IMG/VR virus record: IMGVR_UViG_3300045988_160528
Reading direction: 5' to 3' (one strand)
DNA length: 39,849 nucleotides
From: a virus
The translations under genes were made by a program, and so were the position numbers. Below are positions 10,330 through 32,455 of this stretch, in pieces. The notes under the pieces were generated by a model, which saw only the letters and a list, made by a program, of their open reading frames with translations, had not been told where the DNA came from and did not search any database. Every line of letters begins with the position of its first letter. Position 1 is the first letter of the stretch.

Positions 10330-10343
10330 AGCATAAGAGCAAC

Positions 10344-10378: not shown

Positions 10379-10381
10379 GTA

Positions 10382-10714: not shown

Positions 10715-10729
10715 TCTTCTTCGTCCTCC

Positions 10730-11132: not shown

Positions 11133-11186
11133 ATCAATGTGGCTTGATGCCATAAATCACAGTAAAAATCTAACAGGAGGGATAAA

Positions 11187-13024: not shown

Positions 13025-14912
13025 TTTACGCAAAAAAGAGGACAGTGTTAAAAATATGCCCATAGGCAGAGACGAGGTGCGCAAGGCAGCAGAAATACTG
13101 TCAAAGTACAAGAGCGCCAAATCGCACCTTGAGGCGAGGATCATCGAAAATGAGCAGTTTTGGAAGCTCAAGCAATGGCAGAGCTACAACGAGGTGTCCA
13201 AGCATGACATGCGCCTCGCCTCCGCGTGGCTCTGGAACACCGTGGTATCAAAGCGGGCTGACTATATGGACGCCTTCCCCGAGCCAAACATCCTGCCGCG
13301 TATGCCGGATGATGAGGCTGAGGCACAGCGGCTTACCGATGTTATCCCCGTTATACTCGATCAAAACGGATTTAAGGAGGTATACCGCGACGTTGTTACC
13401 TACAAGCTCAAGCAGGGCACCGGAGTATACGGTGTGTTTTGGGACTCGTCCAAGCACAACGGCGTAGGCGACATTGCAATCAAAAAAATGGATCTGCTGC
13501 GCCTGTTTTGGGAGCCCGGCGTAATCGACATACAGGACAGCGCAAACGTTTTTGTCGTTGACCTGGTTGACAATGATGTGCTGCAGCAGATATATCCGCA
13601 GCTCAGGGACAAGCTCAAGTCCAACGAGAGCCTTGTGTCAAAATACATATATGACGATACGGTCGACGCAACAAACAAGTCTTGTGTTGTGGACTGGTAC
13701 TACAAAAAAAGGTCAGGCTACAAATCGGTTTTGCATTTTTGCAAATTTGTGGGCGACGAGGTTTTGTATGCCACGGAAAACGATACGGAGCTGCCAAAGC
13801 ATTACATTACGGACGAGTACGGCGAGCTGACCGAGCAGCCCTACGGCAAGCCTCGCAGTGAGCGCGGATGGTATGAGCACGGCAGATATCCCTTTGTTTT
13901 TGACACTCTCTTTGACATAGAGGGCAGCATTGCCGGATACGGATACTTTGACTACGGCAAGGACACGCAAAAAGAGATCGACATTATCAATCAGGCTATA
14001 GTCAAAAATACTGTCTGCGGAGCAAAGCCGCGATATTTTATCAAAGAAAACGGCGCGGTAAACGAGTCGGAATTTGCCGACTGGCAGAATGATTTTATCC
14101 ACACGGGCGGATCTCTCGGACAGGACAGCATAAGACCTGTTGATTACAGTTCTCTCAGCGGCAATTATATTACGTTTCTGGATTACAAAACAGGTGAGCT
14201 CAAAGAGGTAACCGGAAACCGAGACGTTAACAACGGCGGTACAAGCGGAGCCACGGCCGCCAGCGCTATAGCTGCTATGCAGGAGGCGGGATCAAAGCAG
14301 AGCCGTGACGGTATATCGGCTACATACGAGGCATACAAGCAGGTTATTTATCTCGTTATTGAGCTTATGCGCGAGAAATACGACACCATGCGGTATTTCC
14401 GCATACAGGGGCAGAGCGGCGAGCCTCAGTATGTAGAGTATTCCAACGCTGACTTGAGAGCGCAGCCGCAGATGAGCGCGGCAGGCGCTGACATGGGACT
14501 GCGGATGCCCGAATTTGACATTGACGTTACGGCGGAAAAATCAAGCGAGTACACCAAAATGGCGCAGAATGAGCTTGCCCTGCAGCTTTACGGACTTGGC
14601 GTATTTAATCCGCAAAACGTCGACCAGAGCCTTATGCTGCTCGATGCGATGGATTTTTACGGCAAGGACGATATTGCACAGAAAATCAGTGCGAACGGCA
14701 CTATGCTTGATCAGCTTATGCAGTATCAGCAGATTGCGCTGACACTGGCGCAGAAATACGAGCCTCAGACAGCTGCGATGATAGCAGGCAGCATACAGCA
14801 GTCAGCTCCGCAGATGCAGCAGGCGAGTGTAAGCGTATCGGGCAATGCGGCGGAGGATACACGCATGCAAAAGGCACGTGATGCCGCACAGGAGAGGACG
14901 CAGCCGAGATGA
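13017..14912 (+). CDS. Portal protein.
   Basis: A 631-aa protein directly after terL, with a GTG start and GGAGG 6 nt upstream. Size and position are typical of a portal. Confidence 0.7.
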   Translation: MFNLRKKEDSVKNMPIGRDEVRKAAEILSKYKSAKSHLEARIIENEQFWKLKQWQSYNEVSKHDMRLASAWLWNTVVSKRADYMDAFPEPNILPRMPDDEAEAQRLTDVIPVILDQNGFKEVYRDVVTYKLKQGTGVYGVFWDSSKHNGVGDIAIKKMDLLRLFWEPGVIDIQDSANVFVVDLVDNDVLQQIYPQLRDKLKSNESLVSKYIYDDTVDATNKSCVVDWYYKKRSGYKSVLHFCKFVGDEVLYATENDTELPKHYITDEYGELTEQPYGKPRSERGWYEHGRYPFVFDTLFDIEGSIAGYGYFDYGKDTQKEIDIINQAIVKNTVCGAKPRYFIKENGAVNESEFADWQNDFIHTGGSLGQDSIRPVDYSSLSGNYITFLDYKTGELKEVTGNRDVNNGGTSGATAASAIAAMQEAGSKQSRDGISATYEAYKQVIYLVIELMREKYDTMRYFRIQGQSGEPQYVEYSNADLRAQPQMSAAGADMGLRMPEFDIDVTAEKSSEYTKMAQNELALQLYGLGVFNPQNVDQSLMLLDAMDFYGKDDIAQKISANGTMLDQLMQYQQIALTLAQKYEPQTAAMIAGSIQQSAPQMQQASVSVSGNAAEDTRMQKARDAAQERTQPR

Positions 14913-15169
14913 TAGAGGTTATCTACGACCGTGATGTGCCGTCAATATCGGCGAGCGGTCATGCAGGGTATGCTCCCGCCGGGCAGGATATAGTCTGCGC
15001 GGGAGTATCCGCACTGCTTGAAACTCTTGCAATGTATGCGACGGATGTACATGACAAGGGCAATTTTGTAATATCCGGCGGAGATACTTCTCTTTACGAT
15101 TTCGCCGCCGGAGGAATTGCCGAAATTTCGGAAAAATATCCCGAAAACGTGATTATCACCTATGTGTGA
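14909..15169 (+). CDS. prp: Prp-family cysteine protease (YsxB/DUF464-like), phage prohead processing type.
   Basis: GHAGYAPAGQDIVCAGVSAL matches the Prp catalytic His/Cys region. It sits between the portal and scaffold genes. Confidence 0.8.
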   Translation: MIEVIYDRDVPSISASGHAGYAPAGQDIVCAGVSALLETLAMYATDVHDKGNFVISGGDTSLYDFAAGGIAEISEKYPENVIITYV

Positions 15170-15223
15170 TATCTCTTTATAATCTACACAGAGTCACGGG
15201 CTTAACCCGGAGAAAGGATTTTT

Positions 15224-16093
15224 ATGAAGAAATTCGATTTACAGCTTTTCGCGGAGGAAAGCGCAGGCGAGGCGACAGGTGCGGTTATGAGTACCGCAGA
15301 TGCTGCCGGTATGCCGGTCGCCGACGGCGAAGCTGCGGGAGCACAGGCAGTCGATACTGCCGGCGCAGGGACTCCCACGGCGGATGAAAGACTTCCCTAT
15401 GACCGTATACGCGAAATGTATGCGGAGGACATCAACAAGACGGTAAAAAATGCTGTTGAGAAACGCCTCAGGCGGGAAAAGGACGCACAGGGCACGCTAA
15501 AAAAGCTGCAGCCCCTTGTAGACCGCGCTGCCAAAAAGTACAGCAAGGATGCAAAGGACATTGACGCTATTATGGCTGCCGTAAGTGCCGACAGAAGCTA
15601 TTACGAGGAGCTTGCCGAAAGAAACGGCACAACCCCCGAGATTGAGGAAATGCTTGAACGCTCGGCAGCAGAGGCAAGAAGCGCCCGCGAAGCTCTCGAA
15701 GAACGGGAGGAAGCGGACAGAAACCGTGAATTTGCCGAAAGAATAGGACGTCAGGTATTGGAAGTGAGAGAAAGGTTTCCCGATTTCGATCTGCAGACGG
15801 AATTGGACTCGAATCCTCAGTTTGCCAAGCTTGCTCAGAATCCGTCGCTGTCTCTCCTTGACGCATACAAGGCTACCCGATTTGACGAGGAAATAGCCAA
15901 GGCGATGCAAAACACCGCTCATGCCGTAGAAGCGAATGTTGTAAACAACATCCGAAGCGGCGCACAGGTAGCGGAAAACGGTCTCGGAAACACACCTCCT
16001 GCAACAGTTAAAAAAGATATTTCAAAACTGTCTCTCTCGGAAATACAGGAATACATAGAGAGAGCAAGGCGAGGAGAAGTTGTAACATTCTGA
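15224..16093 (+). CDS. Scaffolding protein.
   Basis: An acidic, Ala/Glu-rich helical protein upstream of the capsid gene. Its N-terminus is MKKFDLQLFAEES, which looks like a Prp cleavage motif. Confidence 0.65.
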   Translation: MKKFDLQLFAEESAGEATGAVMSTADAAGMPVADGEAAGAQAVDTAGAGTPTADERLPYDRIREMYAEDINKTVKNAVEKRLRREKDAQGTLKKLQPLVDRAAKKYSKDAKDIDAIMAAVSADRSYYEELAERNGTTPEIEEMLERSAAEARSAREALEEREEADRNREFAERIGRQVLEVRERFPDFDLQTELDSNPQFAKLAQNPSLSLLDAYKATRFDEEIAKAMQNTAHAVEANVVNNIRSGAQVAENGLGNTPPATVKKDISKLSLSEIQEYIERARRGEVVTF

Positions 16094-16120
16094 GCTTTTC
16101 CCCGCAGAAAGGGAAAAATT

Positions 16121-17140
16121 ATGTTTACTTTTAATCTTCAGAGATTCGCAGTTCTTACACCTACTGTAGGTACATACGGCGTATCAAACCTTAACGGCAC
16201 AACAAACTCTACTACCGGCAACAATCTGTCTGCCGAAATGAAAACCTTTTACAACACTGCTCTGCTCGAAAATGCAAGGGCAAAGTATGCGTTTAACCAG
16301 TTCGGAAAGAAGCAGACACTTAAGCCCGGAAGCGGAAAAACCGTTGAGTGGCGCAGGATGAAAACCTTTGCGGCTGCAACCACTCCTCTTGTAGAGGGTC
16401 TTATCCCCGACGGCAACAAGCTTGATGTATCCACCATCACCGCAACCGTTCAGCAGTACGGAGACTACACTCCCCTCACCGACGTTGTAATGTGGGCTGC
16501 GGTTGACCCTCTGCTTTCAGAGACTGTCAACGAGCACGGTGATCAGGCTGCACGTACACTCGACATTCTCACTCGTAACGTGCTGCTTACCAACACAAAC
16601 GTGTACCGCGTCGGCGGTGCCGCGAATAACAACGCGCTTACGGTTGCAAACGGTAAAATTACCGCGACTGATGTTGCAAGAGCCGCAACAATTCTCAAGC
16701 AGCAGAACACTCCCACCATAAACGGTGACTTTATTGCTATAATCCATCCTTCCGTTGCTTACGACCTGAGACAGGACAGCGGATGGGTAGAGGCACAGAA
16801 ATACGCTAACCCCGAAAAGATATACAACGGCGAAATAGGCAAGCTGCACGGAGTGCGCTTTATCGAGACCACGGAGGCAAAGATCGAAAAGAACTCTGCC
16901 ACCGCTCCTATTTCCGTGTATCATTCGTTCTTCTTCGGCAAGGACGCTTTCGGCATCGTAGAGCCTACCGGAATGACCATGAAGACCATTATAAAGTCTG
17001 CCGAGGAAATCGGCGGTCCTCTTGAGCAGTTCGGCACCTCCGGCTGGAAAGCCATGCATGTGGCAAAGGTTCTTTATCCCGAGAGACTTCTTGACGTTAT
17101 CTCTGCTTCTACGTTCTCGGCAACGGACAACGAAAACTGA
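16121..17140 (+). CDS. Major capsid protein.
   Basis: A 339-aa protein after the scaffold gene. Its N-terminus is MFTFNLQRFAVL, which looks like a Prp cleavage motif. Confidence 0.7.
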   Translation: MFTFNLQRFAVLTPTVGTYGVSNLNGTTNSTTGNNLSAEMKTFYNTALLENARAKYAFNQFGKKQTLKPGSGKTVEWRRMKTFAAATTPLVEGLIPDGNKLDVSTITATVQQYGDYTPLTDVVMWAAVDPLLSETVNEHGDQAARTLDILTRNVLLTNTNVYRVGGAANNNALTVANGKITATDVARAATILKQQNTPTINGDFIAIIHPSVAYDLRQDSGWVEAQKYANPEKIYNGEIGKLHGVRFIETTEAKIEKNSATAPISVYHSFFFGKDAFGIVEPTGMTMKTIIKSAEEIGGPLEQFGTSGWKAMHVAKVLYPERLLDVISASTFSATDNEN

Positions 17141-17153
17141 AAGAGGTTTTAAC

Positions 17154-17381
17154 ATGGCAGAAAAAAGAGTAAGAATCAAGCTGCCCTATGTTCCGGGCGT
17201 GCTTGAAGACGACAAATTTGTCGGAGACAACGGCAAAACATATCTCATCAAGAGAGGCGAGTTTGTTGAAGTGCCTGAATCTGTAGTGGAAATACTTAAC
17301 GGTGCCGAAAGATTTGATCTTGAAGGTGCCGAAACAAGCCGCAAACTGCAGGAAACAGCCAAAACAAAGGCGCTTAATTAA
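17154..17381 (+). CDS. Small head-associated hypothetical protein (75 aa).
   Basis: RBS GAAAGAGG precedes the ATG at 17154. A strong terminator follows. Confidence 0.5.
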   Translation: MAEKRVRIKLPYVPGVLEDDKFVGDNGKTYLIKRGEFVEVPESVVEILNGAERFDLEGAETSRKLQETAKTKALN

Positions 17382-17384
17382 CAG

Positions 17385-17417
17385 AAAACGGGGGTATCAC
17401 TTACCCCCGTTTTTTTC
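17385..17417 (+). terminator. Intrinsic terminator, first copy of a duplicated cassette.
   Basis: A 9-bp stem acgggggta/tacccccgt with loop tcact, followed by TTTTTTT. Confidence 0.8.
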
Positions 17418-17443
17418 TTATACTTTTGTCATGGAGGTGCGAT

Positions 17444-17803
17444 ATGAAAATCAATGATGTTATTGCTCAGACAAGAGCGCTTACCCGCGGTAAGTATGAC
17501 GACGCGCAGCTCATAAAATGGCTGAGCCGTCTTGACGCGAAAATACACAACGAAATTATCACTCAATACGTTGATTGGGACGGTAAGAAATTTACGCCGT
17601 ATACAGACGGCGAACAGGAGCTTATCATACCGTACGTTTACGGCGAAGTATACGACTATTATCTGAAAGCAAAGATATGCGAAAGCAACGGAGAAAGCAA
17701 CGGCTACAATGCAGCCGTACAGAATTTCTCGTCTGCCTATGAGGATTTTGCAAACTGGTGCAGGCGGACGCACGTGCACGGAAAGTCTTACATAAGATTT
17801 TGA
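17444..17803 (+). CDS. Hypothetical virion protein, possibly a head-tail adaptor or tail tubular A analog.
   Basis: GGAGG is 6 nt before the ATG at 17444. The assignment rests on position in the structural module. Confidence 0.5.
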   Translation: MKINDVIAQTRALTRGKYDDAQLIKWLSRLDAKIHNEIITQYVDWDGKKFTPYTDGEQELIIPYVYGEVYDYYLKAKICESNGESNGYNAAVQNFSSAYEDFANWCRRTHVHGKSYIRF

Positions 17804-17811
17804 GGTAAGCA

Positions 17812-20034: not shown

Positions 20035-20127
20035 TTATTATAGAACCGCCCAAAGGAGCAAGCATCGAAGAGCTATATGAGTGGGCAAAGCATTTATGCG
20101 AAATTCTGAATATGGAGGATAAAAACA

Positions 20128-21210
20128 ATGGCAACGAAAATAGTGAGCGGCGGGGGTAACATTAAGGTTACGGCTTACAATCCGGATGAGCGCAGAAGCA
20201 AATATGCGCTTGAAAGCGACAGGGCACTTGAAGACCTTGCAAGGCGCCGAGCCGCGCTGCAGAGCGACAGAACATATGCCGCGCAGTATGCCAAAGCCAT
20301 AAACGATTATGTTAACCGCGGAAAGTTTACATACGACTTCAACGCCGACCCGGTGTATAACCAGTACAAGGACAGCTACACAAGGCAGGGTAGGCTTGCC
20401 ATGAAGGACACAATGGGACAGGCTGCGGCGCTTACGGGCGGATACGGCAACAGTTATGCTCAGACTGCGGGACAGCAGGTATACAACAACTATATGCAAA
20501 AGCTCAATGATGTTGTGCCTCAGCTTAGCGAGAGCGCGTATTCGAGATATGTGCAGGAGGGACAGGATATGCTGAACAAGGCAAATGCCCTCGGCGATGC
20601 GGATCAGACAGAATATGCCCGTCTTCTTCAGGATTACACTATAGCCGCGGACGAATATAAGAGTGCGTCCGAACTGGAGCGCAGCTATGCCGCCGATGCC
20701 CTTGCAAGAGAACAGCTTGCATATCAGAAGGAACGCGACAAGGTATCCGACAGCCAGTGGGAAAGACAGTTTGAGCTGTCGCGGCAGAACAGGAATACTG
20801 CGGACACAGAGGAAGTCGACTCTATACTGTACAACTACAAGTACAAAGACGAAGACGGAAAAACTTACTTTACCAACCCCGGCGGCAAAGAAGAGGCTAT
20901 CGAAACAGGCGTTAATCCTTATACAAGGTCTAAAAACCCTGATATTAAGCACGGCACCTTCAGCAACGGCTATCAGCCTGACAACGTGGGCGGTAAGAAG
21001 CTGACGCAGTCCGGCTACACAGACAATGTAAACGGACGTACGCAGAATGTATGGTTCGACTCGGACGGTCTGGGCTGGATATGGGACGGCACAAAGAACG
21101 CATATCAGGCGTACTACGTTAACGGCAAGCGTTTTACCCGAAAAACACTTGATGACAAAAACACGCAGGGCAACACGCACGGAAGAATCAAGGAAGACAG
21201 ATACAAGTAA
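20128..21210 (+). CDS. Virion protein (360 aa), internal/ejection-protein-like by position.
   Basis: RBS GGAGGATAAAAACA-ATG. It is rich in Q, N, Y and G. Confidence 0.5.
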   Translation: MATKIVSGGGNIKVTAYNPDERRSKYALESDRALEDLARRRAALQSDRTYAAQYAKAINDYVNRGKFTYDFNADPVYNQYKDSYTRQGRLAMKDTMGQAAALTGGYGNSYAQTAGQQVYNNYMQKLNDVVPQLSESAYSRYVQEGQDMLNKANALGDADQTEYARLLQDYTIAADEYKSASELERSYAADALAREQLAYQKERDKVSDSQWERQFELSRQNRNTADTEEVDSILYNYKYKDEDGKTYFTNPGGKEEAIETGVNPYTRSKNPDIKHGTFSNGYQPDNVGGKKLTQSGYTDNVNGRTQNVWFDSDGLGWIWDGTKNAYQAYYVNGKRFTRKTLDDKNTQGNTHGRIKEDRYK

Positions 21211-21225
21211 TCTACGGAGGCTGAC

Positions 21226-24200
21226 ATGGCATTTGAAGCAACAAAGAATTTCAAAAAGAAATCCGCAGGCGGAAGATTTGAGGCTACAAGCAATTTCGGT
21301 GTGGACGATACTGTAATATCATCAAGGGTTAACGCAATTTCCAAGGATATAGAATCGCTTTACAATGACTATTACAAGGATTACACCGAGCGCAGCAAGT
21401 ATGTTTTGGGAGTTGACAGCAAATATGAAAATATGCAGGCTCCCGGACTCAAGGTATCCATGCAGAGCTACAAAGACCGTGCAAAAAAGATAAAGCAGAG
21501 CATTGAGGACAACAAGGCTTTTCTGACTCCGGAGGGTTATCTTGCCGCTCTGCAGAATGTCAACTCGATTATTGATACCGACACGACCGAGGACGACAAG
21601 ACTTTCAGCGATTATTTCAACAGTTCGGCAGCCGCCGGCGGACGGGATAAATTCAACAAAATCGTCGAGGAAAGAGCAGCGGCACAGAGTGCGCTTAAAA
21701 AAGCGGGACTTAACGAAAACAGCAAATACAGAGATATCGAAGCCGCTCTTTCCGACAGAACGATCGATGCGGGAGCAGCCCCCGATGAAATGGGACAGGG
21801 GCGCAGATATCAGGGGAGAAAGCTGACATCTGAAGATAAAGACTATCTTTCTTCACTGCTGCTGACGGAAGACAAAGTGTCTACCATGACAGACGATGAA
21901 ATACTCAGAAAAATCAAAGATAAAGGCAATCCGTCATACAAACAGAAAATCGCTTTGGGAGAGATCGACAGACTCACAAAGAGGAATGAGGAGTTAATCA
22001 AACTCGCCGAAGCCGATGGGAATGTGTCTTCATTCAATCCTTACGGAGATTACGCGGAAGAATACGCAAATAACCAGCAGCGTATGGAAAAGCTGCGTAA
22101 TATGATAGACAATGATTATGCCGGACGCGATGTAGCGTATTACTACACAGACGACAACGGCAACTCCGGCGCCATGTCATGGGAAAATCTGTACTATGAG
22201 CGCAAGGTCGGCAACGCATACAAAGCGGCGACTGATAAGGGATACGGAGGATACAACAGTGCAGCCGCAGCAGCATACGATGAAATCAATTTTATTGAAA
22301 AAGTCACGGATGCAATGCAGTGGCTTTCGGAAAACAGCACTGTAAGTGCCGAAAAGAAAAAGCCGTACCTTGATATTGTCAAAGAATATGACGAAAAGTA
22401 CGGAACAAACTATGCCAAAGAAGACGGAATATACAGCATTGAAACCAAGAACCGGATAAACAGTGAAATTAAGAACAGCGATGCGTTGAACAAGCTGAAA
22501 GAAAATTTTAAAAGCGAGTCCGGGGCGACTTATGACGCTGTTAAAGACTACGCAAAGCTGCAGCGGGACAAGGAAAGAGCGGCAAAAGTTCAGGAAACAG
22601 TTCAGACGGCAGTTGAGGGAGTGAACAGCGTTCCCGTTGTCGGTAAGGCTCTCGGCGGAATTGCTTCGGCTATTTCAGCCGTGCCGTTCGCTCTTGTCTC
22701 CGGCACCGATTATATTTTCAACCTTATGGATTCTATAGGGCACAGCGACTACAACAGCGATAGTTTTCGCCCGATTAACACCTATGATGATTATGCCACA
22801 AACATATCCGGCGAAATCATCGGAGCCCAGACGGAAATATACGACAAAGCAATGCAGGAAGCAGGTGTTTCCGAAAGGGCAAGAAAATTCTGGACAAGCA
22901 CATACAGCGGGGTTTCATCCGGAATCAACTCGCTGGCTACCGTTGTAGGATCGTGCTATGCATTCGGTCCCGCGGCAGGTCAGGTTGTCGCAAGCGTTAT
23001 TCTCTCCGGGCAGGCTGCTTCAAGCGGTCTGCAGGAGGCTGTTCAAAACGGTTCGACTACGAACGAGGCGCTGGCATACGGTTTTGCCTCCGGTGTTGCC
23101 GAATATCTCGGCGAGAAAATATCAATAGGTTCGCTCGTTGACAAATTTCTCGAAAGCAGCTTTGACGTTACAAGCTTCAAGTCGTTCATGAAGTCTTTTG
23201 TAAAAGATAAAAATCTGCTGAAAATGCTGGGACAGGGCGCGGTTGAGGGCAGCGAAGAAGTAGTTACCGAAATCATGAACCGCTTCTCTGATGCTGTCAT
23301 AAATCAAGATCACTCAAAGTTCTCGAACGCAATACTCACCTATGAGGCGGAAGGACTCAGCAGAGAGGAAGCCAAAAAGAAAGCTTTTCTTGATGTGCTC
23401 GCTTCTGCCGCAGAGCAGGCTTGGGGTGGCTTTGTGGGCGGTATTATGGGCGGTACTGCTGCTGTTATCGGAGGGGGAGTCTCCGCAGCCCGCAACAGTG
23501 TTGCAGACATAAAAAATCAGACCGATATCGGAAAGTCCATTGCGGGAACGGATGCGGGGAAAAATGTGCTTGAAATCGCTGAAAAGCGAGGTTTTGACAT
23601 ATCCAAAGCCTCAGAGGAAGTGCCCGAAGGCCGCGGCGTAGGAAAGCTTGTTTCCAAGGTCAGAAACGCGGTTCGGAACAGAAACATGGGCAAGCTTGCA
23701 CAGAATGTTGTCGAAGCCGAGCTGAAAGCGGCAAAGGAAACGGCAATGCCTATTGTGAACAACAATGAAAGCCTTGCGGAGATGGTTGCCGAAATCGCAA
23801 CCGGCACCGCCGATGTCAGCGCCATTTCCGCTCTTTCCGCAAACGGCGTTCTTACAGAGGAAAACGTCGAAAAAGTTTTTGAGGCTCTTGAAGCCGTACA
23901 GAAGCGCACAGAGACTTCCGAGGTGCGCAATATGATCAATGATATTGTCGAAACCAAGGAGTCATCCGAAGGAAAAGCCTACAACGCAAGCAGCATATAC
24001 GGCATTAAGCGAGAGGGCGGCAAAACAAAGTACATACTTGAAGACGGCACAGAGGTTGACAGCGGCGAATTCGGTCTTACATCAAAGGACAAAACGCTGT
24101 TTGTCAATGCCGTAAAGGGTATGACCGACGCAGAAGCAAACGAGATGATAAGCGCATACCGCAAGTATGCAAACGGCACTGACAAGGGAGTGTTCGCTAC

Positions 24201-27200
24201 AACGTGGGGACTGTATCGCTCTCTCGGCGAGACCGGAGCGGCAAAGAACGGCGAACGTGTAGCAGGGTATAAGAGCAGAATATATTTCACGCAGAATGCC
24301 GAAGTCAACAACGTTCTTGTGACCTCCGCTATCGAGCAGGGAGTAAAAGCGAGAGCACAAAGCGAAATGAAAAGAAACATCAAGGCGAGAGCCGAGCGAG
24401 TTATTCAGGAAAGAGGACGCGCAAAGGGCGAGGTGCGAGGAGAAGAACATCTCGGCAAAAACAAAAGCGGAGCGAAAAATGTTGCACGCACTCTGGCAAA
24501 GCTCGGATATGACGTTGAATTTCTTTCGGAGGACGCAAAACTGCACGGAAAGCGCATTGGGGATACATTGATAAACGGTGCGTATGATGAGAAGACCAAC
24601 ACAATATATCTGCGAGCTGATGCAACATACAACGCAACCGATGTGCGCGGAATTCTCGGTCACACACTCGCGCATGAGGTCACGCACTCCATAAAGGTGT
24701 GGAGCGAAGCCGATTACAACGTACTGACAGACTACATCCGCGATGCTTTGGATGCTGATTTTGACGCGCTTGTTAAGGAAAAAATGGACAAGCTCGGCAT
24801 GAGTTATGCCATGGCATCCGATGAGGTCATTGCGGACGGATGCGAAATGCTGCTGCGCGACAGCAAGGCGCTTGAAAAGCTTGCTATGGAAAACGCAAAT
24901 CTGTTTGTAAAGGTAGTCACGAAGGTACGGGAATTTATCGCAAATCTTCGTAAGGCGCAGACGGATATGTACGACGGCAACGAGGAGCTGCACGATGCAG
25001 CGCTGAAGCTCAGAGAAGCGCTCAAGAGCCTTGAGGAGGTACAGGAGGTATTCGACAACGCTCTTGAGAATTCCATACGGAACATGAGAAACGCTCTCGC
25101 CGAGGCGGAGAACGCGAAGACGAGAGAAAATCTTGATGTCCTCGAAAAGCAGGCGGAGAAAGAGGGGCTGCAGCTGTCGGAGGAAACAGACGACAAATAT
25201 GATTTTACAAAATCATTTGCCGAACAGGTTGAGGATTTTAAAAACGGTAAGTTTCCTCAATATGATACCCTCCTTGTAGGTGGAACGCCGCAAAAGTGGC
25301 AGTCTGTAGGTTTTAATGCATTGCCTGTTACTTTAAATCAAACTCATGTGGATTATGCTCTTAACGGCACAAAGAACTTTAACCACACTATAGGCGAAGC
25401 GTTGCTGAAAAACCTGCCGGAAGCTATAAAAGACCCTATAGCAATTATTCAGTCTCAGTCGAAGGGGCATTCTGACCGTGCAATGGTGATTTTCGATTTC
25501 AAGCACAACGGCAGCCAAGTAATCAGCGCGATAGAGATAGACGGTACCGGACGTACTAACAATATCGTAATTGACAGTAACGCCATGACTACTATCTTTG
25601 CAAAAAAGAACAGCCTCTCACAATTAAAAAGCGCCATTGAACATACAAACAAAGGCGCAGTGGAATTGTTCTATTGGGATAAAAACAGAGCCGTGACGTT
25701 ACTACAGAGGGCTGGGCTCCAATTGCCCAGTGCCCTGCCTCACGACGGCTCTGTTAATAGTATACGCGATTCAAAGTCAAATGTCAAGACAAAATTTGAA
25801 AATGTAACCGAAACGCAGCAATTTAAGCGCTGGTTCGGAGATTGGCAAAAACATCCGAGCAAAATAAACCCGATATTCTTAGACGCTGACGGCAAACCGA
25901 AGGTGTTTTATCACGGCGCAAAAAAGAACGGCGGATTTACAGTTTTCAGAAATTGGCAGTATTTCACCGACAAGAAATCTTATGCCGAGCGATATGCCGA
26001 GCGAGGCAACAGCAAAGCACTTTACGCTGTGTATCTTACCGCTGACAAAGTTTTTGATACAAGGGATGCGCAGGCGCGTGACATCTATAACAGCATTCGC
26101 AGCGAATACGGGCTGAGTGAACTCCAGGATACAGGGCTTCCCGACTGGACTGACGGATACGACATAAGTGAATATCTTGATGAACATCCGGAGCTCGGTT
26201 ATGATGCCATCATACTTGACGAAGGCGGCGATCTCGTAGACGGAAAACCTGTCAGCCGCGGACTGAGCATAGTCGTTAAGGACTCATCACAGATTAAATC
26301 CGCAACTGACAACATCGGGACGTTTGACAAGGGGAATAAGGATATCCGTTATTCGGAGGAAACCTCCGAACAGCGCGAAAACGCTCTTACGTCATTCACC
26401 GACGATGATGTTAAAAAATATGTGAACAAGGCTGTCAGAAGATTTCATACCACATACTCGCTGAAAAAGGCTGCATATCTGACAACGACCGGGTCAATGC
26501 TTGATTTCAGCGACGGTCAAGGTTACAGAGTACAGGATCACAGAGAGATTTCAGATATTCTTGATTTGCCTGATGATGCGGGATATTCCGACGGCATGAT
26601 TTATTTCATGAACATGGGTAACATCCGTCTGCAAACTTACGGCATTGATATAGCCGCTATGCCTAATGCAAAGCAGGTCTCTATGCTGAGAAGCATTATT
26701 CCGTCTATAATGCGTGAAAACGACGGATTCTATCTTGATGTTTCTGACAGCAGAGGCAACAATGTTTTCAGCAGAGAGTACGGAGAGGGCACTTCTACGT
26801 CAAAAATTATTTCTGATATACAGAATTATTTCAAAGACGGCACCATTCCGAAAGAACAGTCTGATTTGAGGGAATTTATGTTCTCTGAGGAGACCTCCGA
26901 AGAATTTGCCGAAAATGAAAAGTCTGCAATTGAAAAAGCCCTTGCAAACATGTCTGTGAAGGATTATAATAGACGCGGATGGTTAAGGACGCTTCTTACA
27001 AGAGAAGATGCGTCAAAGCTTTACTCTGCCGTCGCAGAGCTTTTCGCAAACAAAAAGCGCAAGGAATTCCGACTCAAGGACGGCAGCTATGCTGTTGAGG
27101 TCAACAACAAGATAATATTCGTTTCAGGCACATTTGAAAATCCGAGGTATGAATCGGTGTTGGTTTTCAACACAGACAATGCAACGGATATGGAGGCACT

Positions 27201-30200
27201 GAAATACTATTTTTTCGGAGATACTGCAACAAACGATTTAACCGTAAAAGATATTAAGCGTTTTATCAACCAAAGGAGAAACTATGGACAAGTTTACGGA
27301 TTCAATGGTGAAGATTACAAAGCGAGTGGGAAGCGCGACTTCGGACGAGCAAAGCTTCGAAACGGCACAAAAGGGTTTGGAGATATTTCACAGTTCGAAG
27401 TCCGAGACGGAGTATATACAAAGGATGAAGGAAACGTTTCCTTACGCGTTCAAGGACTGAAATTCTCTGAAGAGACCGAAACATCAAGGGATACCCTTGT
27501 TTCTGACATGGAAGCTGTTGCCGAGACGGATGAGGAAAAAAGCTTTGTCGAAAAGCTGAAGTCTGAGGTTAAGAAAGCAAACGCTTTGCAGAAGGAGCTT
27601 GCCGAGACCAACAGGAAAATCAAGGAAATCTCTTTCACCAAGGGTACGGACAGGAGCGCTCTTCCCTCCCTGAATGAAGAAAAGGAGCGTATTGCCAAGA
27701 AGCTCAACCGGCTTGACAGCAAATTCTACGGCTACAGAGGATACGACACCTTCAAAACTCTTGCCGAGAGAAAATCGAAAGAGGCTGTTATTGCGGAGAA
27801 GCTGCGTTCAAAAGCCGCCCTGCGCTCACAGAAGCAGAAATATCAGGAAGCGGCGCAGGGCATAAAGGACACGCTTGCGCAGCGGGAGGAAAACCGCAGA
27901 CGGCGCGAGATCGTTCGGGACATTGCGAAGCGCATCGATAAGCTTGACAAGCTTGCCAAGGAAGACAGCAAGACAAAGCACATCCCCAGTGCTCTGAGGG
28001 ACATTGTTAAGGCGTTCCGTGAGCAGATAGACTCACGGACTCAGAATTACGATGAACGCATTGCAAGGGCTGAGAACGCAATTGTCAGCCTTGAAAAGCG
28101 GCGAGGGAAATACCTTGATGCGTATACAGAGTATACTCAGCTTGCGGAGCGCATAAAGCAGTATGACAAAGGCTCAAAGGATTATGCCGACGCAGACGCG
28201 CGTATGGGGCAGCTCAAGCAAGACTTTGACAGTTACAATTCTCTTACGGAGCAGATAGAGAAAAAGCTTTCATCTATCGAAAAGAGCGGTGAGAGAAATG
28301 TCAGAGCCGCGGACTATCTTTCCGAGATGCTTTCGTACTACAAGACATACGACAATGCGGACAGCACTTATTACATTGACGTATCCGATCTTGCGCGAGC
28401 AATTGAAGATCTGCGACACTCAATCGGGGAGAGACCCTTGTATCTGCTTACCGCAGACCAGTTGGAAGACGTTCTTGCCGTTACCAAGGCAGTGCAGAAA
28501 AAAATCTCGGACGCGAACAAGCTTTTCAGAAGCAGCCGCAGCGTTTCGGAGACTACCGCGAAGGTAGCGGGAGAGACAAAGGACGCAAGAAACAAAAAGG
28601 TTTCGAGAAGCGACTTTGTGCGAGGTGCAAAAGACCGCACGGCGAACATGCTGTTCTGGAACAATCTGAAGCCCTATGAGCTTTTCAAGCAGTCCGGCAG
28701 CGATACACTTTATCAGCTCTACCGCAATCTGCAGAGAGCCGAAGGGGACAGCGGCAGGCTTATACTCAAGTATGCGGATAAATACAGAGAAACGGCGCAG
28801 AAATACGGTATCAAGGAAAAAATGTTCAACCAAAAGTTCGACATTACATTTGATAACGGAAAAACCGCCCGGCTCACCGGCGGCGAAATACTGACGCTGT
28901 ATCTCACCGCCAAGCGCGGACAGGGTCGGGTCCATCTGCTCGGAGACGGCTTCAGGCTTGAGGGCGGCAAGATGCGTTTGGTGGCAGACGGCAAAGAGAC
29001 AGTCTATGCCAATGCGGATATGATGACGCTTACGGAGAACGATCTTACCAAATTCGGGAAGACGCTCAGCGACGACATGCGCCGCTTCGGAGACGAGATG
29101 CAGAAATACATGTCTACCGAAATCGCAGCGGACGGCAATGCTGTTTCCATGAAGCTTTACGACATCATGCTTTTCGGCGAGGATAACTATATAACTCTGA
29201 CGGTTGACAACAACTATCTCAGGAGTACCATAGACCCGAAAAAAAATACCGCAAAGCTCAAAAACAGCAAGTTTACCATCAAGACCGTTGCCAATGCGAC
29301 GCAGGCGCTCTCTATCTCAAGCTTTGTTAACGTATATCAGACTCATGCATCGGATATGGCGGCATACGCTGCGTTTACACTTCCACTTGAGGACATTACA
29401 AAAGTCATCAACGGCACATCAAAGTCCGAGGATGGCAGTACAAGAGTGCGCGATGTTCTCGGCTCAAAGCTGTACGGCGAAATGATGAAGTTCCTTACGG
29501 ATGTAAACGGCGGTATACGAAGCGACGGAGATTTGGCATATATGCGGCTGTTCAGCGCGGTGAAGGCTGCGCGAACGGGACTGAATTTAGCTGTTGCAAT
29601 TCAGCAGCCGTGCGCTGTCATGCGTGCTTTTGCGGAAATCAATCCGAAGTATTTCATAGGCGTAAAGGCAAAGACCATGTCGGAGGCGCAGCAAAGAAAA
29701 TCTCTTGCCGAAATGACACAGTATGCCTCTACATGGGTGGTCAAGCAGCTCGGCGGTGTTGACATCAACACCAAGCAGTCTATAGGCAAAACCATTACAG
29801 ACCTCGGCGCAAAAGGAAACACCTTCGGTCATACAGCTGCAAAGGGGCTGCAGGAGGGTCAGTTCTGGGTCGCGGAAAAACTCGACCAAGTCACATGGAT
29901 GTGGATATGGAACGCCTGCAGAAACGAAGCGATTGATAATTTCAAAAAATCCAACGCAGACTATACCTACAAGGATGTGCTCAAAAAAGCGGGAGACCGC
30001 TTTGATGAAATCACAAACAAAACACAGGTATACGACTCCATATTCGCCCGCTCCAAAATAATGAGGGACGGAAAAGCGTTTGAGAAGTTTATCACTCAGT
30101 TCATGGCAGAGCCTATGACCACGCTGAATATGGTTTATGACGGAGTTCGTCTCTTGCTGAACGGAGAAAAAGGAAAAGCTGCAGGAATTTTTGCAAGCCT

Positions 30201-31296
30201 TATTGCAAGCCAGATATTTACCGCGGCTATCAGGTCATTTGCGGACGCTTTCAGAGACGACGATGACGATAAAAACTACTGGGAGAAATATCTGCAGGCG
30301 TTTATTGAGAATTCAATAGACAATATCAATCCGTTCATGCTGCTGCCGTGGTTTAAGGACATATACAGTTTGGTCTTTAACGGGTTTAATGTCGACCGAC
30401 CGGATGTGGAAATTATCGGAGACCTTATGACAAAGGTGAAAAAGCTCGCAAAGGTTTGGGGAGACGAAAGCAAGAACGCCAAGGAAAGAGCCGAGGCGTC
30501 ATGGGATGCCCTTTCCATATTGGCTGACATGAGCGGTGTTGCCATGACGAGCCTTACAAGAGATTTCCGCGCTATATACCGTACAATTGCCACAGAATGG
30601 CAAAGCGCCACGAAAACCACCACTAATACCGCAGCCGACACCGCATGGAAAAACGGGCTGAGCCGTAACCTTACCACGCCGCGCGACGACAAAGGCAAGC
30701 TGTACTACGCCTTTATGAACGACGACGATACATACATCGCACGTACACAGGACAGGCTCGGCGAGAAGGATTTCCGCCGCCGCGTTATCGACTGTCTGAA
30801 GGACAACGACATTCGTATTGCCGAAGCCGCCGCCGCGCACATGGACGGTGACTATGAGAAATATGACAGCATCATACGCGACATAGCAAACGACGGCTTT
30901 GACAAGGAATATGTTGTCGCCGCTGTTGTTTCTGCCGAAAACAAGGCGCTGAAGGACAGCGCGGACGAGGACGAGGACGTTGACACCGTTTCTCAGATCG
31001 ACGGCATGACCGCAACGAAAAAAGACATTATTGCGGATGTTGAGGAAGGAAACTACGACCTGCTCGAAGAATACTACCGTCTCAAGGTGGACTATTACAA
31101 GGAAAAGGAAGCCGACGACCCTGAGGGAAAAGCTTTTACCTCAGTTCGCAGCCTGCTTTCCGGTCACTACAGAGACCTTTACAAAGACGGAGACGAAGAC
31201 GAGCGGGAGCGCATAGCAGACATTCTCGGCGATGTAACCGTTGACGGTCACAAGGTTATCAAAAAATCCACTGTGAGAAAGTGGAAGGAAGACTGA
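21226..31296 (+). CDS. Giant polyvalent virion protein (3356 aa) with a zincin-like metallopeptidase domain plus multiple unassigned domains.
   Basis: A single uninterrupted ORF with RBS GGAGG. The HExxH motif is HTLAHEVTHSI (HEVTH = 24673-24687). Gly-rich hydrophobic segments are present (AWGGFVGGIMGGTAAVIGGGVSAA). There is a conserved block FKRWFGDW...VFYHG at 25822 onward. Further features are a long coiled-coil region and an acidic C-terminus. Confidence 0.85.
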   Translation: MAFEATKNFKKKSAGGRFEATSNFGVDDTVISSRVNAISKDIESLYNDYYKDYTERSKYVLGVDSKYENMQAPGLKVSMQSYKDRAKKIKQSIEDNKAFLTPEGYLAALQNVNSIIDTDTTEDDKTFSDYFNSSAAAGGRDKFNKIVEERAAAQSALKKAGLNENSKYRDIEAALSDRTIDAGAAPDEMGQGRRYQGRKLTSEDKDYLSSLLLTEDKVSTMTDDEILRKIKDKGNPSYKQKIALGEIDRLTKRNEELIKLAEADGNVSSFNPYGDYAEEYANNQQRMEKLRNMIDNDYAGRDVAYYYTDDNGNSGAMSWENLYYERKVGNAYKAATDKGYGGYNSAAAAAYDEINFIEKVTDAMQWLSENSTVSAEKKKPYLDIVKEYDEKYGTNYAKEDGIYSIETKNRINSEIKNSDALNKLKENFKSESGATYDAVKDYAKLQRDKERAAKVQETVQTAVEGVNSVPVVGKALGGIASAISAVPFALVSGTDYIFNLMDSIGHSDYNSDSFRPINTYDDYATNISGEIIGAQTEIYDKAMQEAGVSERARKFWTSTYSGVSSGINSLATVVGSCYAFGPAAGQVVASVILSGQAASSGLQEAVQNGSTTNEALAYGFASGVAEYLGEKISIGSLVDKFLESSFDVTSFKSFMKSFVKDKNLLKMLGQGAVEGSEEVVTEIMNRFSDAVINQDHSKFSNAILTYEAEGLSREEAKKKAFLDVLASAAEQAWGGFVGGIMGGTAAVIGGGVSAARNSVADIKNQTDIGKSIAGTDAGKNVLEIAEKRGFDISKASEEVPEGRGVGKLVSKVRNAVRNRNMGKLAQNVVEAELKAAKETAMPIVNNNESLAEMVAEIATGTADVSAISALSANGVLTEENVEKVFEALEAVQKRTETSEVRNMINDIVETKESSEGKAYNASSIYGIKREGGKTKYILEDGTEVDSGEFGLTSKDKTLFVNAVKGMTDAEANEMISAYRKYANGTDKGVFATTWGLYRSLGETGAAKNGERVAGYKSRIYFTQNAEVNNVLVTSAIEQGVKARAQSEMKRNIKARAERVIQERGRAKGEVRGEEHLGKNKSGAKNVARTLAKLGYDVEFLSEDAKLHGKRIGDTLINGAYDEKTNTIYLRADATYNATDVRGILGHTLAHEVTHSIKVWSEADYNVLTDYIRDALDADFDALVKEKMDKLGMSYAMASDEVIADGCEMLLRDSKALEKLAMENANLFVKVVTKVREFIANLRKAQTDMYDGNEELHDAALKLREALKSLEEVQEVFDNALENSIRNMRNALAEAENAKTRENLDVLEKQAEKEGLQLSEETDDKYDFTKSFAEQVEDFKNGKFPQYDTLLVGGTPQKWQSVGFNALPVTLNQTHVDYALNGTKNFNHTIGEALLKNLPEAIKDPIAIIQSQSKGHSDRAMVIFDFKHNGSQVISAIEIDGTGRTNNIVIDSNAMTTIFAKKNSLSQLKSAIEHTNKGAVELFYWDKNRAVTLLQRAGLQLPSALPHDGSVNSIRDSKSNVKTKFENVTETQQFKRWFGDWQKHPSKINPIFLDADGKPKVFYHGAKKNGGFTVFRNWQYFTDKKSYAERYAERGNSKALYAVYLTADKVFDTRDAQARDIYNSIRSEYGLSELQDTGLPDWTDGYDISEYLDEHPELGYDAIILDEGGDLVDGKPVSRGLSIVVKDSSQIKSATDNIGTFDKGNKDIRYSEETSEQRENALTSFTDDDVKKYVNKAVRRFHTTYSLKKAAYLTTTGSMLDFSDGQGYRVQDHREISDILDLPDDAGYSDGMIYFMNMGNIRLQTYGIDIAAMPNAKQVSMLRSIIPSIMRENDGFYLDVSDSRGNNVFSREYGEGTSTSKIISDIQNYFKDGTIPKEQSDLREFMFSEETSEEFAENEKSAIEKALANMSVKDYNRRGWLRTLLTREDASKLYSAVAELFANKKRKEFRLKDGSYAVEVNNKIIFVSGTFENPRYESVLVFNTDNATDMEALKYYFFGDTATNDLTVKDIKRFINQRRNYGQVYGFNGEDYKASGKRDFGRAKLRNGTKGFGDISQFEVRDGVYTKDEGNVSLRVQGLKFSEETETSRDTLVSDMEAVAETDEEKSFVEKLKSEVKKANALQKELAETNRKIKEISFTKGTDRSALPSLNEEKERIAKKLNRLDSKFYGYRGYDTFKTLAERKSKEAVIAEKLRSKAALRSQKQKYQEAAQGIKDTLAQREENRRRREIVRDIAKRIDKLDKLAKEDSKTKHIPSALRDIVKAFREQIDSRTQNYDERIARAENAIVSLEKRRGKYLDAYTEYTQLAERIKQYDKGSKDYADADARMGQLKQDFDSYNSLTEQIEKKLSSIEKSGERNVRAADYLSEMLSYYKTYDNADSTYYIDVSDLARAIEDLRHSIGERPLYLLTADQLEDVLAVTKAVQKKISDANKLFRSSRSVSETTAKVAGETKDARNKKVSRSDFVRGAKDRTANMLFWNNLKPYELFKQSGSDTLYQLYRNLQRAEGDSGRLILKYADKYRETAQKYGIKEKMFNQKFDITFDNGKTARLTGGEILTLYLTAKRGQGRVHLLGDGFRLEGGKMRLVADGKETVYANADMMTLTENDLTKFGKTLSDDMRRFGDEMQKYMSTEIAADGNAVSMKLYDIMLFGEDNYITLTVDNNYLRSTIDPKKNTAKLKNSKFTIKTVANATQALSISSFVNVYQTHASDMAAYAAFTLPLEDITKVINGTSKSEDGSTRVRDVLGSKLYGEMMKFLTDVNGGIRSDGDLAYMRLFSAVKAARTGLNLAVAIQQPCAVMRAFAEINPKYFIGVKAKTMSEAQQRKSLAEMTQYASTWVVKQLGGVDINTKQSIGKTITDLGAKGNTFGHTAAKGLQEGQFWVAEKLDQVTWMWIWNACRNEAIDNFKKSNADYTYKDVLKKAGDRFDEITNKTQVYDSIFARSKIMRDGKAFEKFITQFMAEPMTTLNMVYDGVRLLLNGEKGKAAGIFASLIASQIFTAAIRSFADAFRDDDDDKNYWEKYLQAFIENSIDNINPFMLLPWFKDIYSLVFNGFNVDRPDVEIIGDLMTKVKKLAKVWGDESKNAKERAEASWDALSILADMSGVAMTSLTRDFRAIYRTIATEWQSATKTTTNTAADTAWKNGLSRNLTTPRDDKGKLYYAFMNDDDTYIARTQDRLGEKDFRRRVIDCLKDNDIRIAEAAAAHMDGDYEKYDSIIRDIANDGFDKEYVVAAVVSAENKALKDSADEDEDVDTVSQIDGMTATKKDIIADVEEGNYDLLEEYYRLKVDYYKEKEADDPEGKAFTSVRSLLSGHYRDLYKDGDEDERERIADILGDVTVDGHKVIKKSTVRKWKED

Positions 31297-31357: not shown

Positions 31358-32455
31358 ATGTACGATATTACTTTAGACACAAATAAAGGCGGTTTTCAAG
31401 CCGTTCTTGAGGGTTTCAAACTCGGTGACACAAAGACACGCCTTGTTGTAATACGCCTCATGAGCGGTCTCAAACCTTATTCTTTGCCTGTAAATGAAAG
31501 CGGCGGCGCCGATTACACCGCCACAATGTATATAAAGGGCGCGACGGCGACGCATTACAGCGAGTGCACGGCATATGCCGACCGCATAGAGCATACCTTT
31601 CTCACGTCGGAGATCGAAGCGGGAGAATCAGAATGCGAAATCCGCATCATCGGGAGCGGCGGGGACACGCTCACAAGCGCAAAGTTTAAAATTTACGCGG
31701 AGGCGGTGCTGCAGAATGACGCGGCAATCGAAGCGACAGACACATACTCCGCGCTTGACAAGGCGCTTGCGGATGTCAAAAACGCGCAGACCGGGCTTGA
31801 CAAGGCGCTTGCGGATGTCAAGGACGTGCAGACCGGGCTTGATACGAAGATGCCGAAGGTGCCGGAAGCGGAAGCAGACTGCATTGCCGTATTTGACGGC
31901 AAAGGCAATGTCGCGGAGAGCGGCTACTATACAGAGGATATCGAAAGAGTATTTGCGGAGTCGTCGAATGAGGATAAGTGGAGAAGCGTACTGCTTACGG
32001 ACGGATTCTACAAAGCTACATACAGCAGTAGGCTTCGAGTGCAGCCGTCCACCGGAAAAATGCGGGCAAACGGAAAGATTGTACACTATGTTACCGATGA
32101 AGAGGCTGCCGCATGGGATGCAAAGCAGAACGCCCTTATTGCCGGAGACAATGTGCAGATAGTCGGAAATGTTATCAGCACTACCGTTGCAAAGGGAGAC
32201 AAGGGAGACAAGGGCGATGCCGGAGCACCCGGCGCAAAGGGGGATAAAGGCGACCCGGGAGCAAAGGGCGACAAGGGAGACCCCGGAGAAAAGGGGGACA
32301 AAGGTGACACCGGAGCTCAGGGAGCACCCGGAACTCCCGGCGTGGACGGACATACTCCCGTCAAGGGAACAGACTACTGGACAGCGGCGGACAAGGCGGA
32401 AATTGTCGCTGATGTAATAGCTGCTCTGCCGGACGGTACGGAGGTGAGCTACTGA
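31358..32455 (+). CDS. Collagen-like tail fibre protein.
   Basis: GGAGG is upstream. Gly-X-Y repeats read [53 protein letters not shown] (about 32191-32350). There is a duplicated 14-aa heptad-like segment. Confidence 0.7.
31754..31842 (+). repeat. 42-nt tandem duplication inside the tail-fibre gene.
   Basis: The unit cttgacaaggcgcttgcggatgtcaaRRacgYgcagaccggg occurs 2.1 times, encoding [14 protein letters not shown] and [14 protein letters not shown]. Confidence 0.8.

Follow-up and report, generated by a model that had tools for sequence, protein, structure and literature searches.

Nucleotides 21226..31296 (plus strand) of a 39,849-nucleotide viral sequence, IMG/VR record IMGVR_UViG_3300045988_160528, form one open reading frame (ORF). 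The whole stretch is called the window below, and the parts of the giant gene described here lie on the same strand. The ORF starts with ATG, has no internal stop, and encodes a phage-type polyvalent protein of 3356 amino acids (aa; ~369 kDa), referred to here as the giant protein. With uniform codon usage, 3356 stop-free codons would arise by chance with a probability of ~e^-161. We found that the giant protein is built as a conserved chassis, an N-terminal and a C-terminal module, around strain-variable cargo whose units are delimited by a short peptide, the joint. This structural point was missing from the first-pass annotation of the DNA.

The gene is intact in related phages. It is uninterrupted in the IMG/VR contigs L001 (3579 aa), L003 (3569 aa) and L004 (3347 aa), and in L022 the frame is stop-free from aa 1100 to its end. 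A 3344-aa protein from a public library (P0039) is 98% identical to the giant protein. The uninterrupted 3356-aa frame reported in the first pass is thus real, and its intactness in L001, L003, L004 and P0039 argues against the assembly chimera that had been raised as a way for the annotation to fail.

Modules of the giant protein

The conserved N-module (aa 1-1317; 21226..25176) consists of a poorly conserved N-terminal region, a hydrophobic Gly-rich module and a zincin region. It is 98-99% identical in L001, L003 and L004 and 56% identical in L006a. A Kyte-Doolittle hydropathy scan found three Gly-rich hydrophobic segments, at aa 468-494 (22627..22707), aa 569-612 (22930..23061) and aa 725-755 (23398..23490). 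The second and third had been annotated before at these positions; the scan added the first, and also a fourth hydrophobic stretch at aa 2984-3006, within the C-module.

The zincin motif HEVTH (aa 1150-1154; 24673..24687) is the sole HExxH in the giant protein. It lies where the first pass had placed it, and within a conserved zincin-like region. H1150, E1151 and H1154 are invariant across 20 divergent relatives (24-46% identity), and HExxH is kept in 70/83 giants with a match to the peptidase region. Downstream is the DEVIADGCEMLL helix (DEVVADxxEMML; aa 1199-1210; 24820..24855), which carries a Glu that is a candidate third zinc ligand. E1200 and E1207 are nearly invariant in the 20 relatives, and A1203 and L1210 are invariant. 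The conserved HExxH helix, taken with the downstream Glu-bearing helix, is what is expected of the zincin superfamily. At the family level, the window sequence gave no profile match to MPTase-PolyVal (PF18818), and the matches among the 20 relatives were weak: two to PF18818 (1.1e-3), two to DUF6782 (2.8e-5) and two to eCIS_core (5.5e-4). Because the window sequence lacks a family match and only some relatives have weak ones, we regard the region, from its sequence, as a divergent zincin and not as a member of PF18818. A profile search of the PDB with the zincin alignment returned only noise (Wss1p, E = 0.75).

The cargo of the window has the arrangement [MuF_C-ART][X][Y] (aa 1318-2080). The MuF_C domain (aa 1383-1488; 25372..25689), a predicted RNase or RNA-binding domain of the PBECR fold, matched Pfam PF18819 with 48.2 bits, above the gathering cut-off. 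It is followed by an ART-PolyVal ADP-ribosyltransferase (ART) domain (aa 1533-1701; 25822..26328; Pfam PF18760, 59.4 bits against a cut-off of 31.2). The match spans aa 1553-1700 and covers the full model (1-140 of 140). The residues that define the active site of ART-PolyVal (Tox-ART-HYD2 clade; H on strand 1, Y on strand 2 and D on strand 5) are kept and align with the conserved positions: H1563 (YHG), Y1579 (QYFT) and D1659 (GYDA). The block FKRWFGDW...YHG, pointed out earlier as typical of large polyvalent proteins, begins at aa 1533 (nucleotide 25822), just upstream of the Pfam match and after MuF_C.

Two further cargo domains had no family match. Domain X (aa 1714-1886; 26365..26883) has an alpha/beta fold in an AlphaFold model of aa 1300-2105, with a predicted local distance difference test (pLDDT) score of 80-97 over aa ~1719-1874. 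Its homologues in other proteins are 36-70% identical, and it had no PHROG match either. Domain Y (aa 1891-2080; 26896..27465) is moderately confident in the same model. We also compared the central model with the PDB using Foldseek; the best hits, metallo-beta-lactamases at E = 0.17, had template modelling scores below 0.1 and were rejected.

The conserved C-module (aa 2085-3356; 27478..31293) comprises a charged region, an alpha-rich domain of ~850 aa and a mildly acidic tail. From its start to ~aa 2400 it is rich in Glu, Lys, Arg, Gln, Leu and Ala (~54% of aa 2085-2400). The "roughly 600-aa coiled coil" annotated at 27480-28330 falls here; that span encodes only 285 aa (aa 2085-2369) and is a charged stretch. 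The alpha-rich conserved domain (aa ~2400-3250) contains the blocks QQPCAVMRA, TQVYDSIFARS, FMAEPMTT and RDDDDDK, and aa 2180-3249 match phrog_22978, a PHROG of unknown function. The C-terminus had been called acidic. It is so mildly, with 28 D+E against 18 K+R in the last 106 aa, and not strongly. Matches of the whole protein to kinesin light chain sequences in the PDB (E ~1e-3) were rejected as compositional, arising from the helical region.

The NCBIfam scan of the giant protein gave no match, and no relative of X, Y or the ~1270-aa C-module was found in Pfam, NCBIfam or the PDB. Approximately three quarters of the protein (the hydrophobic module, the zincin variant, X, Y and the C-module) is without a Pfam model. 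The earlier statement that the domains downstream of the peptidase are unassigned holds for X, Y and the C-module and fails for MuF_C and ART, which belong to known families.

Joints and the exchange of cargo

We found that the peptide hydrophobic-x-[F/Y/L]-SEET bounds every cargo unit. Its SEET begins at aa 1318, 1710, 1887 and 2081. Joint J1 (...EGLQL-SEET, aa 1318-1321; 25177..25188) precedes the cargo, J2 (...KDIRY-SEET, aa 1710-1713; 26353..26364) and J3 (...REFMF-SEET, aa 1887-1890; 26884..26895) lie within it, and J4 (...VQGLKF-SEET, aa 2081-2084; 27466..27477) marks the start of the C-module. J2 is placed by the motif and by a linker in the model. These are the only SEETs in any frame of the window (4 observed, 0.08 expected; Poisson P = 1.8e-6). 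The four copies differ in synonymous codons, and constraint therefore acts on the peptide. All of the joints (4/4) had pLDDT below 50 in the AlphaFold model, in linkers such as those that flank the well-folded domain X. Joints are thus probably located in disordered linkers, as far as the model can tell.

The modules at the two ends are conserved among phages that differ in cargo. Compared with L001, L003 and L004, the giant protein keeps 95-99% identity over the N-module (aa 1-1320) and over the C-module (aa ~2080-3356), and aa 1320-2080 differ. Counting the window, five cargo arrangements were present in six contigs, with flanks 91-99% identical among contigs with differing cargo. L001 has MuF_C-ART, X and a unit of ~410 aa with a second MuF_C-ART. 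L002 and L003 have a different stretch of ~973 aa. L004 has ~525 aa with no family match, followed by Y, and in L022 the entire cargo is Y alone.

DNA homology with these contigs breaks at the joints. All breakpoints against L001-L004 (8/8) were within 17 nucleotides of a joint. At J1, homology with L002, L003 and L004 stops at nucleotide 25185. At J3, homology with L001 stops at nucleotide 26893 and that with L004 is back at 26867. At J4, L001, L002 and L003 are all back at nucleotide 27463. Homology with L022 stops 13 nucleotides past J1 and is back exactly at J3 (26884). Among the joint instances that we collected, identical upstream ends were attached to different downstream cassettes. These alignments show that cassettes are swapped at the joints between otherwise near-identical phages.

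Cassettes can also be present in series. P0017 (543 aa), P0026 and P0027 repeat a Y-type cassette two or three times, every copy with ...VQGLNF-SEET at its end, and cassettes can therefore be duplicated in tandem.

The chassis belongs to a large family. When aa 121-1320 were searched exhaustively, at least 1253 protein clusters matched with E ≤ 1e-3, nearly all of them proteins of 2300-4700 aa; a word-index search with the N-module found a single weak match. The exhaustive search listed 145 matches, 116 of them giants. Among these listed matches, the hydrophobic module was present in 127/145, the peptidase region in 108/145, and the C-terminal globular module in 85/116 giants. MuF_C/ART was found in only 20, X in 12 and Y in 3. 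Because the counts are high for the end modules and low for MuF_C/ART, X and Y, we conclude that the conserved chassis consists of the two ends and that the middle is variable. Relatives of the C-module bear ART, LPD3, PBECR3, PBECR5 or an M23 peptidase, and LPD23 is also present in relatives.

Joints were also found in distant members of the family. Distant giants have repeated joints of an analogous ...DIR[F/Y]S... type, including DIR-FSDRD, DIR-YSRGE, GVQ-YS, LR-FSRK and IK-YSIQD. The first joint behind the zincin module keeps its position across relatives at ~25% identity, and matches to a loose joint pattern cluster in the middle (40-70%) of the proteins. The Acinetobacter sp. ANC 7919 plasmid pANC7919.1 (NZ_CP156790.1; L017, 20946-30596) encodes a 3216-aa "PLxRFG domain-containing" polyvalent protein in which an ART is followed by ...RDDDIRYSRTAN (DDIRYS). 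At aa 844 this protein has a second joint-like sequence, ...DTIRFSGTRG, and at aa 1615 an HExxH of its own. The presence of DDIRYS after an ART in this plasmid protein indicates that the joint type exists outside Firmicutes phages.

One relative has a stop codon in a joint. In L006 (9930-10010), one TAA codon, in frame, stands in place of the second Glu of SEET (FSE-stop-TTFDNSSTQ, compared with FSEETNFDNSSTQ in P0014) and divides the giant gene into ORFs of 1557 aa and 1503 aa. Because the ~1500 codons downstream are open, this stop suggests that the halves are able to work as separate chains.

Two loci contain pieces of the family. In a metagenome-assembled genome (MAG; GCA_964319485.1, contig CAYCVW010000080.1; L011, 7975-10071), a stand-alone 698-aa fragment between infB and the ATP-synthase operon contains the C-terminal half of the zincin region, MuF_C and a 90%-identical Y domain. 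No phage genes were called in its 20-kb locus. The fragment is a remnant that has been domesticated, or else the MAG is chimeric. In L018 (ctg87316l, 5388-13339), the slot of the giant gene is split into genes of 788, 744 and 1112 aa with garbled C-termini. We discarded this arrangement as probably due to long-read frameshift errors; the ORF of its C-module terminates exactly in ...GAFSEET before the stop.

Phage setting, packaging and release

The giant gene lies in the virion block of a temperate phage. The order of genes is large terminase, P22-like portal, Prp protease, probable scaffold, HK97-fold capsid protein, a 125-aa ORF, a 740-aa protein, p360 and the giant. After it come a fibre gene (31358-32452) with collagen triple-helix repeats (its aa 280-333), an amidase gene and, finally, genes for a tyrosine integrase and a Cro/CI-type helix-turn-helix repressor, in agreement with the earlier description of the phage as temperate. 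We identified no tail-tube, sheath, tape-measure or chaperone gene among the scanned virion ORFs. Because no tail-tube, sheath or tape-measure gene was identified, the phage has the look of a temperate short-tailed phage. At the DNA level, megablast with the virion block revealed no relative among annotated phages, and no cultured phage is related. When the two ends of the giant protein (its first 1325 aa and its last 1256 aa) were compared with the phage collection by tblastn, the sole match was an unannotated faecal contig. The nearest genome matches were MAGs of Eubacteriales (Clostridia), and the related contigs are metagenome assemblies. We infer that the window comes from a temperate podophage of gut Clostridia with a P22-like portal. 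No tRNA was found in the window. Directly ahead of the packaging genes, a lone 110-aa ORF on the minus strand (10382-10714) interrupts the plus-strand block and coincides with a local GC-skew dip at 10001-11000.

The gene directly upstream of the giant, p360 (20128..21210, plus strand), has no family match and is conserved. It has homologues in L006, L007, L012, L013 and L014 (30-71% identity), that is, in all six phages examined when the window is included. In L014 (40.7 kb; 8369-22215), the order is portal, Prp, p330, giant (4171 aa), scaffold and capsid. The giant and its partner are therefore in the head module of L014, in contrast to their place after the tail genes in the window. Because p360 is homologous in the six phages and moved together with the giant in L014, we regard it as a conserved partner. 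Genes for head-internal proteins of the MuF type lie immediately downstream of the portal gene (PMC5576092). The L014 giant is two genes after the portal, and the giant of the window is 6 kb from it. By analogy, the giant protein may be packaged into the capsid and ejected from it.

Based on these results we suggest, with moderate confidence, that the giant protein is a polyvalent chassis with joint-bounded cassettes, that the capsid carries it, that it is ejected along with the DNA, and that its joints are cleaved, with the embedded zincin as the favoured protease. A few copies would be packed into the capsid, probably along with p360, and would leave it together with the DNA. The hydrophobic N-module and the C-module would serve packaging, exit and membrane passage. 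Within minutes of the start of infection, the cargo would target proteins and RNA of the host. Cleavage at the joints, which we take to be putative processing sites, would free approximately five products of roughly 145, 43, 20, 21 and 140 kDa.

The joint pattern (hydrophobic residue, R/K/Q, F/Y/L) would suit a zincin that cuts before a bulky hydrophobic P1' residue. Because the pattern suits a zincin and the zincin belongs to the conserved chassis, we favour it over the phage Prp as the candidate joint protease. It would act on its own chain before the aromatic residue, with a hydrophobic residue at P2, R/K/Q at P1 and F/Y/L at P1'. The alternative protease, Prp, would cut after the aromatic residue. 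Predicted new N-termini are thus F/Y/L-SEET if the zincin cuts and SEET if Prp cuts. Iyer et al. (2017) proposed that an embedded metallopeptidase (MPTase) autoprocesses polyvalent proteins (PMC5512222). Only one giant that lacks HExxH was available for asking whether joints persist without it.

Several observations weigh against this model. Packaging, ejection and cleavage are all inferred for the giant protein. The virion RNA polymerase (vRNAP) of phage N4 bears an MPTase domain and is nevertheless packaged unprocessed (PMC5512222), and joints therefore need not be cut. Homology breakpoints at joints may merely mirror domain boundaries. The zincin region of the window had no Pfam peptidase match at E ≤ 1, and the zincin could be an effector instead of a processing enzyme. 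Across the family the loose joint pattern is only mildly enriched (142 observed, 111 expected), the L006 stop is a single case, and the MuF_C and ART parts of the AlphaFold model are of low confidence.

These observations might also indicate that the giant protein works as one intact polypeptide, as N4 vRNAP does, and that joints are flexible linkers or evolutionary seams that are never cleaved. The plasmid proteins ArdC and TraC1 also have MPTase domains and are transferred full-length (PMC5512222), and breakpoints at joints would follow from domain boundaries alone. However, a mere spacer needs no particular sequence, and here a short peptide is kept, with synonymous codon changes, at every boundary and behind unrelated domains. 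A related motif is kept in distant lineages, and the nonsense codon within the L006 joint leaves a downstream frame of 1500 codons intact. We consider an uncleaved giant protein unlikely, though a serious alternative.

It is also conceivable that joints are cut, but by Prp, the enzyme that trims the leaders of scaffold and capsid, and that the cut falls behind the aromatic residue (F↓SEET, where the arrow marks the cut). The prp gene (14909..15169, plus strand), directly after the portal gene, encodes an 86-aa cysteine protease with a GHAG...DIVCAG signature (Pfam PF04327, 52.6 bits against a cut-off of 27), and homologues are encoded beside the portal in L007 and L014. The scaffold (15224..15262, plus strand; MKKFDLQLF↓AEES) and the major capsid protein (16121..16159, plus strand; MFTFNLQRF↓AVLT) have N-terminal leaders with canonical L27-type Prp sites; L007 and L014, though distant relatives, have such leaders too. 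On its P' side the scaffold site reads AEES, which is similar to SEET. Prohead proteases of T4 and phiKZ also process internal head proteins. Prp cleaves F↓A with a size-limited P1', and joints have F/Y/L followed by Ser; Leu is found at P1 in the L27 of C. difficile (PMC9405229).

The joints differ from L27-type Prp substrates at P3. The L27-type motif is (D/N)LQ(F/L)F↓A(S/H), with Gln at P3 (PMC9405229), and the S. aureus Prp requires this Gln, since Ala or Glu there abolishes cleavage. The joints have L, I or V at P3. Canonical (D/N)LQxF↓A had one match in 116 giants, away from joints, and changes in the P' side of the leaders from one phage to another are not mirrored in the joints. In addition, the Acinetobacter plasmid protein, from a gammaproteobacterial element, has a DIRYS joint, and the phyla reported to have long L27 together with Prp are Firmicutes, Fusobacteria and a few more, Proteobacteria not among them (PMC9405229). 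Given the residues at P3, the lack of co-variation and the joint in Acinetobacter, we consider Prp improbable as the joint protease.

If joints are cut, by the zincin as we favour or otherwise, the peptide hydrophobic-x-[F/Y/L]-S-x-x could be a processing site of phage polyvalent proteins in general. Such proteins would be plug-and-play polyproteins: a joint that the protease recognizes would allow any effector cassette to be recombined into a fixed delivery chassis and, once packaged or ejected, to be freed as an enzyme of its own. We offer this generalization tentatively, as somewhat short of probable. If true, a universal joint rule would span more than 1000 clusters of giant proteins and would extend even to plasmid polyvalent proteins.

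The giant protein might instead be a phage-borne polymorphic toxin that benefits the lysogen, its variable domains killing competitors and not countering host defences. The phage is temperate, ART and RNase-type domains are typical of such toxins, as is polymorphism of cassettes, and MuF toxins have been described in temperate phages. In contrast, only MuF_C was detected, with no MuF N-terminal domain, the cassettes are internal to one ORF with no small immunity-like gene after the cargo, and the conserved hydrophobic and C-modules point to a role in the virion or in entry. We give the toxin little credence. Least probable by far is a tail structural protein (tape-measure-like, as the first pass had allowed, or a central fibre) and not encapsidated cargo: its great length, long charged region, Gly-rich hydrophobic segments, the adjoining fibre gene in the window and an M23 peptidase in one relative, as in many tape measures, are set against the lack of any tape-measure family match or any tail-tube, sheath or chaperone gene in Pfam and PHROG scans, a P22-like portal, the head-module position in L014 and the enzymatic effector domains that it carries.

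Comparison with known systems

The giant protein has the hallmarks of the phage-type polyvalent proteins described by Iyer, Burroughs, Anand, de Souza and Aravind (2017, J Bacteriol; PMC5512222), as the first-pass annotation had proposed, placing it in the virion module. These proteins combine 2-15 effector-type domains in one polypeptide in a late-gene setting. The giant has the zincin region, MuF_C, ART-PolyVal and the folded X and Y. Two of its domains match hallmark families above the Pfam thresholds (PF18760 and PF18819), and its gene is flanked by portal, capsid, fibre and lysis genes, with the integrase at the end. It shares with the described proteins the ART-PolyVal, MuF_C/PBECR and zincin MPTase-like domains and the mosaic shuffling of domains. 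In that work, MuF_C was assigned to a predicted RNase of the PBECR fold, ARTs with an H-Y-D active site were described, and delivery with the DNA was proposed (PMC5512222). The giant differs from them in that each of its cassettes is bordered by a defined joint and that recombination breakpoints fall at these joints. We found no joint or cleavage motif described by Iyer et al., and the word "linker" is absent there (PMC5512222). In 2017, polyvalent proteins were predicted to be injected as sets of tools that need cleavage into functional parts. Where and how they are cut has stayed a proposal since then, and the joints give a concrete site that can be tested. The locus offers several handles for this: a joint at each cassette border, two candidate proteases, predicted fragment sizes, and five cargos on one chassis.

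The best experimental analogue is gp47 of phi24B, a 2811-aa polyvalent protein with a MuF-C domain from a temperate Shiga toxin (Stx) podovirus. Mass spectrometry detected it in virions, cryo-EM did not resolve it, and it has been proposed to be a capsid-packaged ejection protein (bioRxiv 10.64898/2026.04.10.717836). It resembles the giant in being a polyvalent protein with MuF-C from a temperate short-tailed phage. It differs in its other domains (LPD5, LPD1 and LPD38) and in its Gram-negative host, and no analysis of cassettes or joints was reported. The tblastn searches with the two ends of the giant protein detected no similarity between it and gp47.

The first pass had likened the giant to a T7 gp16-type internal protein. 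This likeness did not hold up, since there was no Pfam, PHROG or PDB-sequence match, no lytic transglycosylase domain was detected, and the portal is of the P22 type. In P22, the ejection genes come behind those for portal, scaffold, coat and tail hub and ahead of the fibre or tailspike gene. Set beside P22 gp7/gp20/gp16 and T7 gp14/15/16, the giant has a gene order analogous to that of P22 and hydrophobic segments that are compatible with membrane insertion, and its phage has a P22-like portal. In contrast to these sets of three, one fused giant gene is present, with enzymatic cargo and with no sequence or profile similarity to them. P22-type ejection proteins, by gene order, and phi24B gp47 are better analogues than T7 gp16. 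The giant likewise does not group with N4-like vRNAPs, as no RNA polymerase family was found in Pfam, PHROG and NCBIfam scans, or with tail tape measures, with no tape-measure family match and no tube, sheath or chaperone gene identified among the scanned virion ORFs.

The ART invites comparison with Alt of T4, a head-packaged ART that is injected along with the DNA and modifies proteins of the host. Alt is a stand-alone protein of the R-S-E type, whereas the ART of the giant is of the H-Y-D type and lies within a polyprotein. MuF polymorphic toxins (Jamet et al. 2017; PMC5576092) are head-associated proteins of temperate phages with variable toxin domains, and the L014 giant is likewise near the portal. 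They differ in having a single C-terminal toxin, whereas the variable part of the giant is internal and has several cassettes, with no immunity gene seen. The window giant matched neither PF04233 nor PF06152, the families of MuF and SPP1 gp7 minor head proteins, and its gene is not right after the portal.

Short peptides at recombination boundaries are known from other systems. VENN in CdiA and DPxGL in Rhs proteins border the constant and variable parts, and the Rhs motif is also self-cleaved. The giant differs in its motif, in having several joints per protein, in its phage virion context and in that its cleavage is a prediction.

The giant protein thus belongs to a known and very large class of phage polyvalent proteins. 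Its ~850-aa C-terminal domain, X, Y and the partner p360 stand out as conserved modules, without a family or fold match, of abundant temperate phages of gut Clostridia. The joint rule could be used to parse thousands of unannotated giant phage genes into domains, and the chassis could serve as a natural scaffold for swapping cargo. What is new compared with the known members of the class is the chassis-plus-cassette anatomy, the swapping of cargo at the level of strains, and a defined joint motif.

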